The notes under the pieces are model-generated. The model searched no databases. It saw only the letters and a list, made by a program, of their open reading frames with translations, and had not been told where the DNA came from. Positions 37,767 to 42,785 of a stretch of DNA of 64,000 nucleotides are shown piece after piece. A program made the translations under genes and the position numbers. Position 1 is the first letter of the stretch. Every line of letters begins with the position of its first letter. This DNA comes from an uncultured Bacillota bacterium (lineage in GTDB: Bacteria > Bacillota_I > Bacilli_A > RFN20 > CAG-449): assembly GCA_902493275.1 (NCBI GenBank), contig CABUOQ010000003.1, forward strand, positions 17,278-81,277, given 5' to 3'.

Positions 37767-38725
37767 GTTTGAGAGTAGTGTTATCTATTATTACTTTCAA
37801 ACACTTGCGGATGCGGATATTCCAAGCGACATGTTTGAGAGTAGTGTTATCTATTATTACTTTCAAACTAAACGTCAATATAAGCATTGTCCATTACAGT
37901 TTGAGAGTAGTGTTATCTATTATTACTTTCAAACTAAACGTCAATATAAGCATTATCCATAACAGTTTGAGAGTAGTGTTATCTATTATTACTTTCAAAC
38001 CTTTTTGACTTTGTGTGCTCTAAACCAGTTGTTTGAGAGTAGTGTTATCTATTATTACTTTCAAACATTTAAAAAAATTAGTGACTTCGCCAGGGTGTTT
38101 GAGAGTAGTGTTATCTATTATTACTTTCAAACTACTTATTAATTATTACTGGTTACTTTATTGTTTGAGAGTAGTGTTATCTATTATTACTTTCAAACTA
38201 CCTGCTTCAACAATCATATCAAGCCTATGTTTGAGAGTAGTGTTATCTATTATTACTTTCAAACTTGACGGATTGGAAGTAGTGGAAGATACAGGTTTGA
38301 GAGTAGTGTTATCTATTATTACTTTCAAACCAGGTATATTCGCATTGACTTAAACAAGGAGTTTGAGAGTAGTGTTATCTATTATTACTTTCAAACGAAT
38401 GTGATTGTGATTTAGTTGAATCTATTGTTTGAGAGTAGTGTTATCTATTATTACTTTCAAACTACCTGCTTCAACAATCATATCAAGCCTATGTTTGAGA
38501 GTAGTGTTATCTATTATTACTTTCAAACTTGACGGATTGGAAGTAGTGGAAGATACAGGTTTGAGAGTAGTGTTATCTATTATTACTTTCAAACCAGGTA
38601 TATTCGCATTGACTTAAACAAGGAGTTTGAGAGTAGTGTTATCTATTATTACTTTCAAACGTTTAAAAAAGTGAAAATTTTCATTTTTTGTTTGAGAGTA
38701 GTTAATATACTTATTAATGGTTATA
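37767..38725 (+). CRISPR. CRISPR array: 14 full 36-bp repeats (GTTTGAGAGTAGTGTTATCTATTATTACTTTCAAAC), 14 spacers of 29-30 bp, and a degenerate terminal repeat at 38690..38725
   Basis: Exact repeat copies at 37767, 37833, 37899, 37965, 38031, 38097, 38163, 38229, 38295, 38361, 38427, 38493, 38559 and 38625. The terminal repeat keeps only the first 13 nt. Confidence 0.95.
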
Positions 38726-38741
38726 GAAGGAGATATAATAA

Positions 38742-39038
38742 ATGAAAAAAATGAAACCGGAAGAAGTTGAATTTCATAAAGCGTTATATGAAATATCTTT
38801 AAAAAAAGCAAGAAAAGAAAATCCGGGAATAAATATTTTAGAAGAGAAAATGCCAAGATTTATGACTGATGAAACTTGGGGAAAGATTGATGAAGATGCA
38901 GGATATAACGCTATATGTCCATATAAAATTGTTGATGGAGCACCTGGTGAAGCATATAGAGAATTTAATTATTATATTATGACATTTGAAACGTTATTTG
39001 GGATAGATTTGTTAGATTATCCTGATGCAAAAAAATAG
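38742..39038 (+). CDS. Hypothetical small protein (98 aa) immediately downstream of the CRISPR array
   Basis: RBS GAAGGAGA 10 nt upstream. Followed by a terminator hairpin. Confidence 0.5.
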   Translation: MKKMKPEEVEFHKALYEISLKKARKENPGINILEEKMPRFMTDETWGKIDEDAGYNAICPYKIVDGAPGEAYREFNYYIMTFETLFGIDLLDYPDAKK

Positions 39039-39042
39039 AGAA

Positions 39043-39091
39043 AAAATAAGCGGACCTAAAAAAGTCCGCTTTTATTATGGAAAGGAGAAAT
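39043..39091 (+). repeat. Direct repeat copy 1: terminator-like hairpin AAGCGGAC-ctaaaaaa-GTCCGCTT followed by ATGGAAAGGAGA (RBS module)
   Basis: Near-identical copy at 40419..40468. Confidence 0.7.
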
Positions 39092-40093
39092 ATGAGTACT
39101 AAAATTAACAATGGCGGTAAGCAGCAACCTTATATACCAAAAGGAAATGGCGATGAATCTGGCGAATATAGAAATAATGAAACAGGAATAAACAAAGGTC
39201 AATACAACGCGCAAGTTGTAAATAATTACTATCAATATAATACAAAACCGCTCAATGTAAACACGCAGAATGAAAACGCTAAAAAAACTATCAAAGAAAA
39301 AATTAATTTTAAAGAATCGTCGCCAGAACAAAAAGATTCTTATCTTGAAAAATATGGATATAATAAGCCTGATGTTAACGACTATTTAAATAAAATAGAT
39401 ATAGAAACCAATAAAGGCTTTACCGATATGCATAGTTCGAAGGAAAGAGAAACGCAAGATATAAAATTTATTAATGATGAAATAAATAAACAAAGAGCAA
39501 GCAGAAAAATAAAATATGAAAAGAAAGCTATATTTATATTAGGGTTACTTGCTTCAGGAAAGTCTAGTGTGGCGAATCCATTAATTAATAAATTGGGTGC
39601 TTATGAAATTGATCCAGATATTTTCAAAGAAAATTATATTCCAGAATATAATGTTTATACAAAAGGTGATGGAATAGGTGTTTCAAGAGTTCATAAGGAA
39701 TCATCAGATATGGCAAAAGAAATGCAAAGACTTGTTGCAAGTAATGGAGCAAATATTGTAGTTCCAACAGTAGGTGGAAATGTTAAAAAAACAATTGAGA
39801 AAATAAGTAAATTAACAGATTTAGGATATTCTGTAGATGTGGTTCTTGCTCAGCTTCCTTTAGAAAAAGCATTGCAAAGAAATATGAGTAGATACGAACA
39901 AGGAAAAGCGAAGGGAAATGCAAGATTAGTAAGACCTGATTTAATAAATGGTCAAGAAGGAAAGCCAATAGATACTTATGAACAATTAAAAGAATCTAAT
40001 TTAATAACAAATTATGGCGCGTGGAGTACTGATGTGAATTATGGCGAAAAACCAATTTTAATTGAAAAATCAGATAATATGTTAGATTTATGA
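39092..40093 (+). CDS. P-loop kinase-like protein (zeta-toxin/AAA_33-like fold) with an N/Q-rich low-complexity N-terminal extension of about 150 aa
   Basis: Walker A ILGLLASGKSS after a low-complexity N-terminus. RBS GGAAAGGAGA upstream of the ATG at 39092 (track ORF from 39077). Confidence 0.45.
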   Translation: MSTKINNGGKQQPYIPKGNGDESGEYRNNETGINKGQYNAQVVNNYYQYNTKPLNVNTQNENAKKTIKEKINFKESSPEQKDSYLEKYGYNKPDVNDYLNKIDIETNKGFTDMHSSKERETQDIKFINDEINKQRASRKIKYEKKAIFILGLLASGKSSVANPLINKLGAYEIDPDIFKENYIPEYNVYTKGDGIGVSRVHKESSDMAKEMQRLVASNGANIVVPTVGGNVKKTIEKISKLTDLGYSVDVVLAQLPLEKALQRNMSRYEQGKAKGNARLVRPDLINGQEGKPIDTYEQLKESNLITNYGAWSTDVNYGEKPILIEKSDNMLDL

Positions 40094-40148
40094 TAAAAAT
40101 TGAAAAATCAGCATATAAATGTTATTATAAAAGAGAGGAGAAAATTAT

Positions 40149-40385
40149 ATGGAATACACTGTAACATTTGATAACAATGGTAAAAGATATAAAACATACT
40201 CAGAGTACACTAAAGAAGAATTAAAAATGCTTCCTCCTGTTCCTAAAAGAATATGGGAAAGTTTTGGTGAATATATTTACTATAATCCAAGAGCAAAAGA
40301 ATGGGATGATGATGAGAGCCCAGGATTATATTGTAGTGATTATAAACTCTATTTAAAGACTAAAGATACATTGAATAAAGATTAA
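40149..40385 (+). CDS. Hypothetical small protein (78 aa) co-transcribed with the P-loop protein
   Basis: RBS GAGAGGAGA upstream. Followed by the second hairpin copy. Confidence 0.45.
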   Translation: MEYTVTFDNNGKRYKTYSEYTKEELKMLPPVPKRIWESFGEYIYYNPRAKEWDDDESPGLYCSDYKLYLKTKDTLNKD

Positions 40386-40418
40386 TTTGAAGTCATAGCT
40401 ATATTTTAGATGCTATCA

Positions 40419-40468
40419 CATATAAGCGGACCTAAAAAGTCCGCTTTTCTAATGGGAAAGGAGAGAAA
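40419..40468 (+). repeat. Direct repeat copy 2: hairpin AAGCGGAC-ctaaaaa-GTCCGCTT followed by ATGGGAAAGGAGAGAAAAT
   Basis: About 45-bp identity with 39043..39091 (3-4 mismatches). Followed by a start-less ORF remnant. Confidence 0.7.
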
Positions 40469-40820
40469 ATCAAAGATTAGTTCAGTTAATCAATAAAAAG
40501 GTTAATGAAGAACTAATAAAAAAGATACCTAACTTAGAACTTGAAAAAATAAAGTTAGATATCTCAATAACAATTAAACCTACTAAATAATAGGTTTAGC
40601 CTAAGGGGAAGTGAATCCCCTTAGGTATCATAATTAGTATATATGATTTTCTTTAATTAGTCAAATTTATGGTTAGCGAAGCTCAAAAGAAAGCATCGAT
40701 AAAATATAAAGCATAGTGTACTTCGGAAAAATCCGAAACAAAAAACGATAATTTTAGTTTTTAGAAAATTTAAGCAAAAAATTTTTTTAGAATATATACT
40801 TTTAGCAAGGAGAAAATAAA

Positions 40821-42785
40821 ATGAAAAATAAATTTACTATAACTATATTATCATTAATATCATTGTCATCAATTATGGCTTGTCAAAACACATCTTCAAA
40901 TGTGTCTAGTAATCTTACTAGTACTTCATCAGAAATATTATCTAGTGAAATTGTTTCATCAAGTTCAATTTCTTCTAGTATAGATTATGGAACATTAACA
41001 ATTAACGATATTGAAATAGCATTTATGGGTGAAATGCTAATAAATCCAATTTTTTCAAATGATAAGTATGAAGAAGAACTTATTTATGAATTTGATGGTA
41101 ATAATATTCAAATTACTGAAGATAAAGTAAAGGGATTAGTCCCGGGAACAACAACAATCGTAACAGCAAAAAGTCAGCATTTTACTGCAACATTTAAAGT
41201 TATAGTTACATATATAAATGCTATATTAACAAATAATACGGGAGCAGAATCAAAGTATTTAGTTGCAGTACCTGAAGATGATAACTATGTCGTTCATTTT
41301 AACGTTAAAATTCTTGAATATGTTAATGAGTACACAAGGTTATCAAGTTTTGCTTTTAATGGAAGTAATAATTCTTGGTACAATATAGAGATGCAAGGCG
41401 ATGGCAGTATAAATTTGTTTGCTAATTTTTTAGGAAAAGAAAAAAAGTGGATATATTTAGGTAATAAATCTAATTTTACTAATAGCGATAATGTTTTAGA
41501 ATATAAAGTGGATTTGCTAAAGAATGGGTTATCAACAAGATTTTATTTTAATGAAAAATTAGTCTGTTCTTATTCAGAAAAAGATATGTTAGGCAGTGAA
41601 AAATTATCATCGTTAGAAGTAACCTCAGCGGCAGATAGGGAAAATGCTGGTAAATATACTATTGAGTTAAAAGATGTATATTACGAACTTGAAAATAGTG
41701 AAAATTATCAAAAAATGATTAATAGTAATGCAATTCTTTTTCCAAATATAGAATTAACTAAAGATGATGGTTCAGAAGATAAGTATTATTATGGTGATAT
41801 TTCAGCAATTAGTGATAGTTTTCTTTATTCTACTACTATAGATGTTGTTACATGGGATAATAATAAAACTCGCCCTTGCGCCATTGCTTTTAATGGTAGC
41901 GATAATTCTTGGTATAACATTGAAATGAATAGTGATGGAAACCTTATATTATATGGAAGATTTAATGGCGTGGAAAAATACAATATATTTTTGGACAATA
42001 AATCTAATTTAATGGTTAATAATAAGATTCATTTTACAGTTAATATTTTAAAAAGAGGACAAGCAACATGGTATTTTTTCAATGACAGATTGGTATGTTG
42101 GTACACTGAAAAAGAATTAGAAAACTATGAGAATTTAAGTGGGTTTGAAGTGACAGCTGCTACTGATGTTTGGCAAGATGGCGGAGCATATAAAGTTGAA
42201 TTAACTGATACTAAAGTTGAACTCAGCAATTCTTCAAAATATAAGACGTATATGGATAAAGTATTTAAATCATATGAAGATACAACTTTAAAATCTGATG
42301 ATGGTGCAGAACAAAGAGCGCCTGAAATTGCTGTTAGCGATAATTGTGTTTATACGACTACAGTGATAATAAAATCTGATGCTAATGGATGGTTTAGACC
42401 TTGTGCTTTTGCTTTTAATAATAGTGATAATTCTTGGTATAATATTGAAACTGATGAAGGTGGAAGTTTAACATTATTTGCAAGATTTAATGGAATAGAA
42501 AAATATTTTATTTCATTGGGAAATAAAACTGATTATTTGATAGATGGTTTTATTACTTTAAATATATCTATTTTAAAAAGAGGACAATCGACTGCTTTCT
42601 TTGTTAATGATATATTAAAAGCTGATTTTAATGATGAAAATATGACTGGTTATAGTGGATTATATACTTTATTTGTAACTTCTTGTGCTGATCGCTCTAG
42701 CAGTGCGTTTGAAGTATTGTTAAAAAATCAAAGATTAGACGATGAAGAATCAGAGATGTTTAATAAATATAAAAATTTATTGTAA
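40821..42785 (+). CDS. Lipoprotein with three tandem internal repeats of about 170 aa (AFNGS[DN]NSWYNIE ... repeats)
   Basis: Lipobox IMAC and Ser-rich linker. Three colinear repeats containing FNGS(D/N)NSWYNIE and LKRGQ(A/S)T. Confidence 0.6.
   Translation: MKNKFTITILSLISLSSIMACQNTSSNVSSNLTSTSSEILSSEIVSSSSISSSIDYGTLTINDIEIAFMGEMLINPIFSNDKYEEELIYEFDGNNIQITEDKVKGLVPGTTTIVTAKSQHFTATFKVIVTYINAILTNNTGAESKYLVAVPEDDNYVVHFNVKILEYVNEYTRLSSFAFNGSNNSWYNIEMQGDGSINLFANFLGKEKKWIYLGNKSNFTNSDNVLEYKVDLLKNGLSTRFYFNEKLVCSYSEKDMLGSEKLSSLEVTSAADRENAGKYTIELKDVYYELENSENYQKMINSNAILFPNIELTKDDGSEDKYYYGDISAISDSFLYSTTIDVVTWDNNKTRPCAIAFNGSDNSWYNIEMNSDGNLILYGRFNGVEKYNIFLDNKSNLMVNNKIHFTVNILKRGQATWYFFNDRLVCWYTEKELENYENLSGFEVTAATDVWQDGGAYKVELTDTKVELSNSSKYKTYMDKVFKSYEDTTLKSDDGAEQRAPEIAVSDNCVYTTTVIIKSDANGWFRPCAFAFNNSDNSWYNIETDEGGSLTLFARFNGIEKYFISLGNKTDYLIDGFITLNISILKRGQSTAFFVNDILKADFNDENMTGYSGLYTLFVTSCADRSSSAFEVLLKNQRLDDEESEMFNKYKNLL

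Follow-up and report, generated by a model that had tools for sequence, protein, structure and literature searches.

A zeta-toxin-like kinase with a conserved N-terminal leader in a probable phage relic next to the CRISPR array of an uncultured Bacillota bacterium

We analysed a stretch of 64,000 nucleotides (the window) from contig CABUOQ010000003.1 of the assembly GCA_902493275.1, which belongs to an uncultured Bacillota bacterium. The host DNA has a GC content of 28% and carries the sporulation genes SpoIIE and YabP and a type II-A CRISPR system. Next to the CRISPR array there is a 98-aa open reading frame (ORF), followed on the forward strand by two genes, namely a P-loop kinase gene with a particular N-terminal leader and a 78-aa ORF. 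This gene pair is placed between two copies of a short module made of a hairpin and a ribosome-binding site (RBS). The original prediction took this arrangement for a candidate defence or addiction cassette, with signs of insertion by recombination at the module. According to our analysis, the region from about 38.7 to 40.6 kb is probably a decayed fragment of the virion operon of a temperate siphovirus, which bears a two-gene effector cassette formed by the leader-kinase and its 78-aa partner.

The kinase gene occupies positions 39092 to 40093 of the forward strand. The complete ORF runs from 39077 to 40093 (338 aa), but the ATG at 39092 is the one correctly spaced from the RBS and it gives a protein of 333 aa; the ORF first described is therefore present, at 333 and not 334 aa. 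Four parts can be distinguished in the protein: the leader (aa 1-29), a disordered N/Q-rich linker (aa 30-60), a helical N-subdomain (aa ~61-143) and the P-loop core (aa 144-333). The core matches the Pfam family Zeta_toxin (PF06414) with an E-value of 2.7e-15 and 56.8 bits against a cut-off of 22.3, over aa 144-293 of the 338-aa form, and AAA_33 was a weaker match. The Walker A motif GLLASGKSS, already recognised in the original prediction, is found at aa 151-159 of the 333-aa form. In the alignment to zeta it pairs with GQPGSGKTS, and the catalytic Asp segment IDPDIFK pairs with IDNDTFK. The conserved kinase residues are those of Walker A (G151-S158), D174/D176, H201/E203, G228 and R267/R278. 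Furthermore, the window protein keeps all the columns that are invariant among 63 stand-alone homologues (G151, G156, K157, D174, D176, Y246 and R267).

Regarding the structure, a single-sequence AlphaFold model was unusable (predicted local distance difference test, pLDDT, of 34) and was replaced by a model built from the alignment of the 63 homologues, which reached a pLDDT of 85, with good order from about residue 70 on. The pLDDT is lower than 50 only in aa 30-60, and residues ~70-143 form confident helices of the conserved domain. Thus, the N-terminus of about 150 aa that had been described as low-complexity is disordered in the linker, but its leader is conserved and its last part is folded. 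The best Foldseek matches of the model were the zeta toxin structures 3q8x and 1gvn (E 1e-10, TMt 0.63, root-mean-square deviation 2.5 A), followed by PezT (2p5t) and AvrRxo1 (4z8t). The Pfam match, the alignment and the modelled fold agree with the zeta-toxin-like assignment made beforehand and identify the window protein as a kinase of the Zeta_toxin family whose catalytic motifs are predicted to be intact.

An exhaustive HMMER search returned 2470 relatives of the kinase. Among the best 150, most are domains within proteins of 700-4800 aa and a smaller set is stand-alone, with 300-460 aa. At least 59 loci of IMG/VR hold a kinase relative, and many of the viral matches are ORFs of 700-3700 aa. 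Among the cultured phages a relative was found in just 5, all of them Bacteroides phages, and the partner in none. The NCBIfam models of housekeeping kinases (shikimate, gluconate, adenylylsulfate and homoserine kinases) gave at best 13-18 bits against cut-offs of 138-715, so this is not a housekeeping kinase, which was one of the ways in which the original prediction could have been overturned.

The module has 43-45 nt and consists of an 8-bp GC hairpin, a T-run and the RBS GGAAAGGAGA. There are exactly two copies in the 64 kb, both of them where they had been reported. Copy 1 (39046-39088, forward strand) has the hairpin AAGCGGAC-CTAAAAAA-GTCCGCTT at 39048-39071 (8 bp, -12.2 kcal/mol), followed by TTATTATGGAAAGGAGA; it is a terminator-like hairpin with a short T-run, and its RBS is at 39079-39088. 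Copy 2 (40422-40465, forward strand) has its hairpin at 40424-40446, then TTCTAATGGGAAAGGAGAG, and the RBS at 40454-40465. The copies are ~91% alike over 44-45 columns and differ in one additional A in the loop of copy 1, two substitutions past the T-run and one additional G in copy 2. Both of them fold into a stem-loop of -11 to -13 kcal/mol, with z-scores of about -2.6 to -3.0, and the pattern GCGGAC-N(3-12)-GTCCGC occurs in the window just at these two sites (0 expected from 100 shuffles). The sister loci, that is, the same locus in other assemblies, also have two module copies each, always at the same positions. The bare 25-nt hairpin was found in three unrelated metagenome contigs, without the RBS part and without homology of the flanks, and it had no match in viral contigs. 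The hairpin is a generic terminator shape and not a dispersed repeat family. No dispersal of the kind of repetitive extragenic palindromes or miniature inverted-repeat transposable elements was seen in the window, the sister loci or the viral and metagenome contigs, and the objection that the module might be a common intergenic repeat therefore fails.

In a set of 5.8 billion proteins only eight share words with the kinase. Half of these eight (293-295 aa) have the first ~60 residues in common with it and continue with another C-terminal domain, and in other assemblies their genes take the same place as the kinase gene, with the CRISPR array on one side and the gene of a 654-aa lipoprotein on the other. 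The window and the sister locus L002 differ by 1 mismatch over 38625-39228, are unrelated over 39229-40417 and are again 99.7% identical from 40461. The exchanged block comprises the linker, the kinase domain, the 78-aa gene and the spacer; its left junction is inside the gene, just past codon 46, and its right junction is at hairpin copy 2. This means that the C-terminal domain has been allelically replaced between strains. The leader-coding stretch for aa 1-46 (39092-39229, forward strand, MSTKINNGGKQQPYIPKGNGDESGEYRNNETGINKGQYNAQVVNNY) is common to the 293-295-aa alleles and probably forms the 5' homology arm of the swap. Therefore, the recombination at the module that had been proposed is seen at copy 2, but the left junction is past codon 46 and not at copy 1.

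The alternative domain (…DDGLSGFAITKDGDLVSVFNL…LDCY…GFK…) resembles, by eye, an acetyltransferase (GNAT) core. It had no Pfam or NCBIfam match and a weak one in PHROG (phrog_2563, 2e-4). The proteins that carry it are P0002 (L002 618-1499), P0003 (L003 10001-10888) and P0007 (L006 10001-10888).

The sister strains also explain the start-less ORF that had been noticed after copy 2. It lies at 40465-40590 of the forward strand (41 codons plus stop) and is a 5'-truncated copy of a 44-aa ORF (MTKKENQRLVQ...) that is intact in L002 and L004. In L002 and L003, a 90-aa gene and the complete 44-aa ORF come after copy 2. Both are affected by a deletion in the window: the 90-aa gene is missing, as are 4 codons at the start of the 44-aa ORF, with the junction at the RBS of copy 2. 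The start-less remnant is the result of this deletion.

The origin of these flanking genes was revealed by locus L073, from a 38-kb IMG/VR contig with 29% GC, where the order of the minor head, Neck1 and tail genes is the usual one. Specifically, L073 shows a minor head gene, a gene at the scaffold position, a 449-aa gene at the capsid position, two leader proteins of 121 and 201 aa, a 92-aa ORF, the hairpin with the RBS, a 163-aa gene at the adaptor position, a Neck1-type gene and the tail genes. The 90-aa product of the sister strains matches residues 1-90 of the 163-aa protein with 74% identity; for the product of a 121-aa gene in L003 and the 121-aa phage protein the identity is 49%; and a 272-aa ORF in L006 corresponds to the last 257 aa of the 449-aa capsid-position protein (81% identity). 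At the DNA level, positions 40376-40464 of the window are 77% identical to 4423-4514 of L073, where the intergenic sequence AAGCGGAAGTAAAAAATCCGCTTTTT ATTTTGGAAAGGAGA precedes the 163-aa gene. The phage-type intergenic region (40386-40465, forward strand) holds module copy 2, and since the aligned region of L073 has the same hairpin and RBS, copy 2 is native punctuation of the late operon of the phage. On this homology both the flanks and hairpin copy 2 can be assigned to a phage. We had also tried the 90-aa gene as an immunity protein, and this was rejected because it is the truncated adaptor-position gene. The L073 matches do not agree with a free-standing cassette inserted at the module. 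Our best reading is that the cassette is a ~1.9-kb chromosomal phage relic and not an independent defence island, related to the MuF and polyvalent effectors of phages.

The source contig of L073 is also our L076 (CAAFXL010000096.1, 38,219 nt), in a metagenome-assembled genome labelled 'uncultured Ruminobacter sp.'. This binning looks wrong, because of the 29-33% GC and the homology to the relics of a low-GC sporeformer.

A second relic of the phage module was found at L006 9084-10947 (contig SRR23947518_1465), in a different chromosomal neighbourhood, after genes for MutS2, UvrC, GerE and a Germane-domain protein. What is left there is a shortened capsid-position gene of 272 aa, a 295-aa leader gene, the hairpin/RBS, whose stem has a G-U-compatible change, and the start of the adaptor-position gene. 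A small piece of the virion operon has thus been preserved twice, in the window-type locus and in the neighbourhood of L006. The 272-aa ORF was considered as an encapsulin shell, and this was rejected: it has no match in Pfam, PHROG, NCBIfam or PDB and it is the C-terminal part of the capsid-position protein of L073.

The 121-aa leader protein is encoded at L003 9631-9996, L004 463-828 and L005 3354-3719, with the phage homologue at L073 3148-3513. It joins the leader to a C-terminus that resembles half a ferritin (DEFEAIEGY ... EEDH), and it gave weak, sub-threshold matches to two families of ferritin-like encapsulin cargo, EncB_fam (1e-5) and ferrit_encaps (2e-4), as well as to DUF2383 and Rubrerythrin. 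In L073 its gene comes directly after the capsid-position gene, which parallels the shell-plus-cargo layout of encapsulins.

A phage origin could also mean that the whole region is inert prophage debris, in which the hairpins are two similar intrinsic terminators and the genes are heading to pseudogenisation. Indeed, truncation or deletion has affected the flanking phage genes, some strains have the 98-aa gene only as a pseudogene, the bare hairpin exists in the three unrelated contigs, and no space is left for a promoter between hairpin 1 and the kinase, with only 3 nt between the RBS of copy 1 and the ATG. Nevertheless, the kinase is full-length and keeps every invariant residue of the family, the identical protein sequence was read on 6 contigs, and the alternative alleles have a ratio of nonsynonymous to synonymous substitution rates (dN/dS) of 0.35-0.45, which indicates purifying selection. 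Moreover, the repeat reaches past the hairpin into the RBS and is homologous to the intergenic region of the phage. We therefore regard mere debris as rather improbable.

The leader also connects the kinase to phage virion modules. It has ~30 aa, with the core motif TKxNxGGxQQPY...G.Y in aa 3-26 of the window kinase. A degenerate DNA pattern for TKxNx[GA]GxQQ[PE]Y...G.[FY] was found in 8 IMG/VR stretches, always at a predicted N-terminus (for L075 this requires that a spurious overlapping ORF be disregarded), and the same scan of genome contigs gave 2 loci. Most of the leader genes in the 8 stretches are directly after or near portal, minor-head or capsid-position genes; in the short fragments L069 and L072 no structural gene was identified. 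The proteins that follow the leader are diverse. The one of L068 is RelA/SpoT-like, and those of L070 and L071 are HExxH metallopeptidase-like and come directly after terminase and portal, with a second metallopeptidase-like leader copy elsewhere on the same contig (L074). The C-terminal parts of the leader proteins match PHROG 'head morphogenesis' families, and the RelA/SpoT-like protein also matches the toxin domain of MuF (SPP1 gp7 family) proteins of Streptococcus pneumoniae phages. L012 has, after the major head gene, three genes that share exactly the same GNPYHDKEGKFTS leader, among them a kinase homologue, and a fourth gene whose leader is a close variant; small ORFs are interspersed. 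In L081 the order is terminase, portal, Phage_min_cap2 and leader-kinase. Thus, the leader recurs on unrelated enzymes in phage virion modules.

Around one third of the stand-alone kinase relatives begin with variants of the motif (QQPYDEKGRF, GNPYHDDLGRF, HPRxxxGxF). A scan with NPYHDxxxG[RKQ]FT gave 78 matches in 67 viral stretches; 30 of the 72 assessable ones start at most 40 codons past the preceding stop and the rest are internal. In the ten internal cases that were scanned, the motif was in C-terminal extensions of portal proteins, right after Peptidase_S78 prohead protease domains or in an ART-PolyVal protein. Portal tails and prohead proteases are inside the procapsid. The motif would therefore be a mark of proteins located within the capsid, and could act as a docking peptide or be a site of processing.

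The motif NPYHDxxxG[RKQ]FT together with a glycine-rich stretch occurs at L087 2813-4585, L101 7012-9051, L127 1767-3410, L104 5576-6754, L128 644-2164, L136 6677-8332 and L088 3257-4501. It is placed in portal extensions and, in many viral contigs, right after Peptidase_S78, and we found no paper describing it. For the leader, our literature search on the motif strings, capsid targeting and packaged toxins likewise found no description. In L068 (4402-6820) and L012 (4514-8325) there are tandem leader genes interleaved with ORFs of 81-139 aa, and these runs resemble the arrays of orphan toxin/immunity cassettes in contact-dependent inhibition (CDI) and Rhs loci. We also considered the leader as part of a MuF linker; this was rejected, since the MuF toxin of the S. 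pneumoniae phage IPP32 has no clear leader at the junction of MuF and toxin.

A conserved N-terminus followed by a variable C-terminus and a small downstream ORF, with the recombination junction right past the conserved N-terminal coding region, is also what could be expected from a secreted interbacterial polymorphic toxin with its immunity protein. In that case the N-terminus would be a secretion signal, for example a type VII-like one. This explanation seems very unlikely to us, because no secretion-system genes are present in the annotated parts of the window (the first ~28 kb are not annotated), Pfam reported no signal peptide, LXG or WXG region, and the leader gene is in a phage virion operon wherever the fetched stretch is long enough to show its neighbours.

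The 78-aa gene (40149-40385, forward strand; core YSEYTKEELKMLPPVPKRIW) would encode the cognate inhibitor or immunity protein of the kinase. The motif [YF][TN][KE][ER]EL..PP.P is also found in small ORFs adjoining three other kinase homologues. Two of them have the small ORF downstream, P0009 in L079 (48% identity to the window kinase) and P0012 in L082 (38%), and the third, P0010 in L081 (37%), has it adjacent on the opposite strand, so that it is convergent and opposite to the late operon. The corresponding cores are FTKEELEKMPPCP, FTKEELKNYPPIP and YNERELAVLPPKTW, and pairwise BLASTP E-values of 6e-5 and 1e-4 were obtained. Furthermore, the 78-aa gene was swapped between strains together with the kinase domain. 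The motif-level homologues beside the three other kinases support the idea of a toxin-partner pair. In the 55-nt gap before the 78-aa gene there is a promoter-like site (TTGAAA, 17 nt, TG-n-TATTAT; 40100-40128, forward strand), which is a consensus match only, as promoter-like sites showed no enrichment over shuffles; strings similar to a -35 and an extended -10, read by eye, precede the partner genes in L079 and L082.

Alternatively, this pair could be a module of the host chromosome, similar to epsilon/zeta (PezAT), that acts as a type II toxin-antitoxin or abortive-infection system and serves addiction or phage defence independently of any virion. We consider this unlikely, but more probable than the other alternatives. 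The kinase has the zeta fold and the Pfam membership, a small partner is conserved beside its homologues, the ORFs of the cassette are intact while the flanking phage genes are truncated or deleted, and the place is a strain-variable spot adjoining cas genes. Indeed, the fold, the Walker A motif, the DxD catalytic region, the closest solved structures and the small partner are all shared with epsilon/zeta and PezAT. However, in these systems the partner gene is upstream, and in our case it is downstream, or convergent in L081. Searches of PADLOC-DB 2.0 with the 98-aa, 338-aa and 78-aa proteins gave no match at E <= 1, and the 78-aa protein matched no Pfam, NCBIfam or PHROG family either. No antitoxin of the epsilon/PezA families was found upstream of the kinase: the 98-aa protein has no family match and is not linked to the allele. 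The window kinase also has an additional leader, linker and helical subdomain and comes from a phage structural context. For four leader-bearing kinase homologues the surrounding sequence was fetched; two of these are on long contigs and lie in phage structural operons, and the contigs of the other two are shorter than 2 kb. Finally, the same leader is present on enzymes of unrelated function and the alternative allele has no partner gene. Given its gene order and the lack of a known antitoxin family, the window pair is not a member of the epsilon/zeta systems. What remains of the toxin-antitoxin-like module in the original prediction is the 78-aa partner, co-swapped and with a recurring motif; the 98-aa gene drops out of it, because it also accompanies other C-terminal domains and has become a pseudogene in some strains, and hence is not tied to the kinase. 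Both small ORFs exist as originally described.

We return therefore to the phage effector. Jamet et al. (2017; PMC5576092) reported MuF toxins followed by small immunity-type ORFs, and Iyer et al. (2017; PMC5512222) noted that zeta-toxin-like kinases occur both within polyvalent proteins and as fusions with MuF. As in the MuF toxins, a toxin-type C-terminal domain is followed by a small ORF. MuF toxins are encoded in the head/packaging module of temperate Firmicutes siphoviruses; the homologues in L012, L081, L068, L071 and L073 are in such a module too, and the window copy is in a remnant without capsid genes. The window kinase is followed by an ORF of 78 aa (<150 aa), a pairing that recurs in L079, L082 and L081, and the C-terminal domains of leader-bearing relatives match the same PHROG 'head morphogenesis' families and the MuF-toxin domain of S. 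pneumoniae. Nevertheless, the window kinase has the ~30-aa motif and the linker instead of a MuF domain, which was matched in it neither by Pfam nor by PHROGs, and for this reason it does not count as a MuF toxin. A separate short minor-head (MuF-like) gene is present in the related phages L068, L071 and L081. With the polyvalent proteins it shares the kinase family of their zeta-like domains. However, Pfam and the model show a single catalytic domain, in a stand-alone protein with its own leader and partner gene, and having one domain it is not a polyvalent protein.

Other systems offer analogies of layout. AvrRxo1-ORF1, with its partner AvrRxo1-ORF2 (Arc1), has the zeta-like kinase fold (Foldseek E 1e-6). 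AvrRxo1 carries a delivery signal at its N-terminus, and the gene right after it codes for a small protein that binds it. Nevertheless, AvrRxo1 is secreted by a type III system into plant cells, and the likeness is an analogy and not membership. The VENN (CdiA) and DPxGL (Rhs) junction motifs are short peptides whose DNA bounds exchanged domains, as happens just past the leader between the window and L002. In phage T4, an N-terminal capsid-targeting tag puts diverse internal proteins into the head. Both kinds of motif are unrelated in sequence to the window leader; moreover, this leader is at the N-terminus of free-standing genes, and a variant of it is found in portal tails and protease fusions.

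We can now suggest how the cassette worked in the parent phage. The leader would place the enzyme in the capsid, and the enzyme would be delivered along with the DNA, like the MuF toxins and the polyvalent proteins, with the tag acting in trans and no fused MuF domain. The 78-aa protein would bind and block the kinase in the producing or lysogenic cell. The hairpin/RBS copies would act as operon punctuation, that is, a terminator or RNA-stabilising stem and then an RBS, and, jointly with the leader-coding DNA, they would be the homology arms in the exchange of cassettes. During this shuffling one hairpin/RBS copy would have been duplicated, copy 1 being probably the duplicate of copy 2 set before the leader gene. 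The pair may persist in the chromosome because a toxin-inhibitor pair is hard to lose.

A more general proposal, which we put forward tentatively and with less confidence than the phage relic itself, is that the ~30-aa motif is a portable tag for the virion interior and defines an undescribed class of leader-tagged phage cargo loaded in trans. The tag would have the forms TKxNxGGxQQPY..G.[FY] and NPYHDxxxG[RKQ]FT and would be a docking peptide or a site for the maturation protease. Its cargo would include kinases, RelA/SpoT-like enzymes, metallopeptidases, a GNAT-like domain and an encapsulated-ferritin-like protein. The tag DNA would double as a recombination arm, and chromosomal relics would persist as toxin-inhibitor pairs.

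Several observations weigh against these proposals. The window retains no capsid genes, and any function in delivery has therefore been lost there. The argument for capsid loading comes from the position of the genes and from a motif in portal and protease proteins that is related but not identical, and QQPY...GEY and NPYHD...GRF are joined as one presumed motif by their shared position in homologous kinases. In L077 the leader gene is after a tail-position gene, outside the head block. With regard to the partner, the 78-aa protein had no full-length homologues and nothing in the set of 5.8 billion proteins, its family had no confirmed relative in viral contigs, and the similarity to the other partners is short, with pairwise E-values of about 1e-4. 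At the alternative allele (293-295 aa) the hairpin is not preceded by a separate small ORF, which means that a toxin/immunity logic is not universal at the locus. Finally, the position aligned with E116 of zeta is a Pro in the window kinase, a non-acidic residue that also sets it apart from epsilon/zeta and PezAT, and consequently its substrate may not be UDP-N-acetylglucosamine.

Regarding the neighbourhood, the type II-A CRISPR array is outside the cassette, at 37767-38726 of the forward strand, with 14 full 36-nt repeats and a degenerate terminal repeat at 38690-38726. The genes for Cas9, Cas1, Cas2 and Csn2 are upstream of it, according to the Pfam annotation of the syntenic locus L003. 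The terminal repeat retains only its first 12 nt and passes directly into the RBS of the 98-aa gene, at the trailer end. Inside the array, a three-spacer block (starts at 38199, 38265 and 38331) is exactly duplicated at 38463-38624, and spacers 2 and 3 (37869 and 37935) differ in 2 of 30 nt. The spacers of the window, L002, L003 and L005 matched no fetched phage locus, and the idea that the phage DNA was captured via CRISPR spacers was rejected on this ground. We found no evidence of a functional tie between the cassette and the array. Together with the PADLOC result, this leaves the proposed defence cassette without support.

The 98-aa ORF (38742-39038, forward strand) is present in all the sister strains and has no detectable homologues. 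The L002 copy differs from it by 1 nt, and in L003, L004 and L005 a stop codon interrupts the ORF. On the other side, the variable region ends with a second, unrelated hairpin (CCTAAGGGGA...TCCCCTTAGG; 40600-40625, forward strand), which was read from the sequence and not folded. Just downstream, the 654-aa lipoprotein gene (40821-42785) encodes three internal repeats of ~175 aa, with DNA-level repeats of 128 nt placed 525-534 nt apart, and its product has no Pfam annotation in the syntenic loci.

The window itself can thus be taken as a well-explained phage relic and not as a new defence system, and caution is needed when variable islands beside CRISPR loci are read as defence islands. The cassette differs from the known MuF and polyvalent effectors in having a short leader in place of a fused MuF domain and in being a ~1.9-kb relic without capsid genes. 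It shows that toxin-type genes can outlive their source prophage and go on exchanging domains. If the leader is a true capsid-loading tag, it would provide a sequence rule for recognising phage-delivered effectors that have no MuF domain, and possibly a handle to load chosen proteins into phage particles. Furthermore, since the leader-tagged ferritin-like gene of L073 adjoins the capsid gene, the cargo of these phages would then parallel the cargo peptides of encapsulins.

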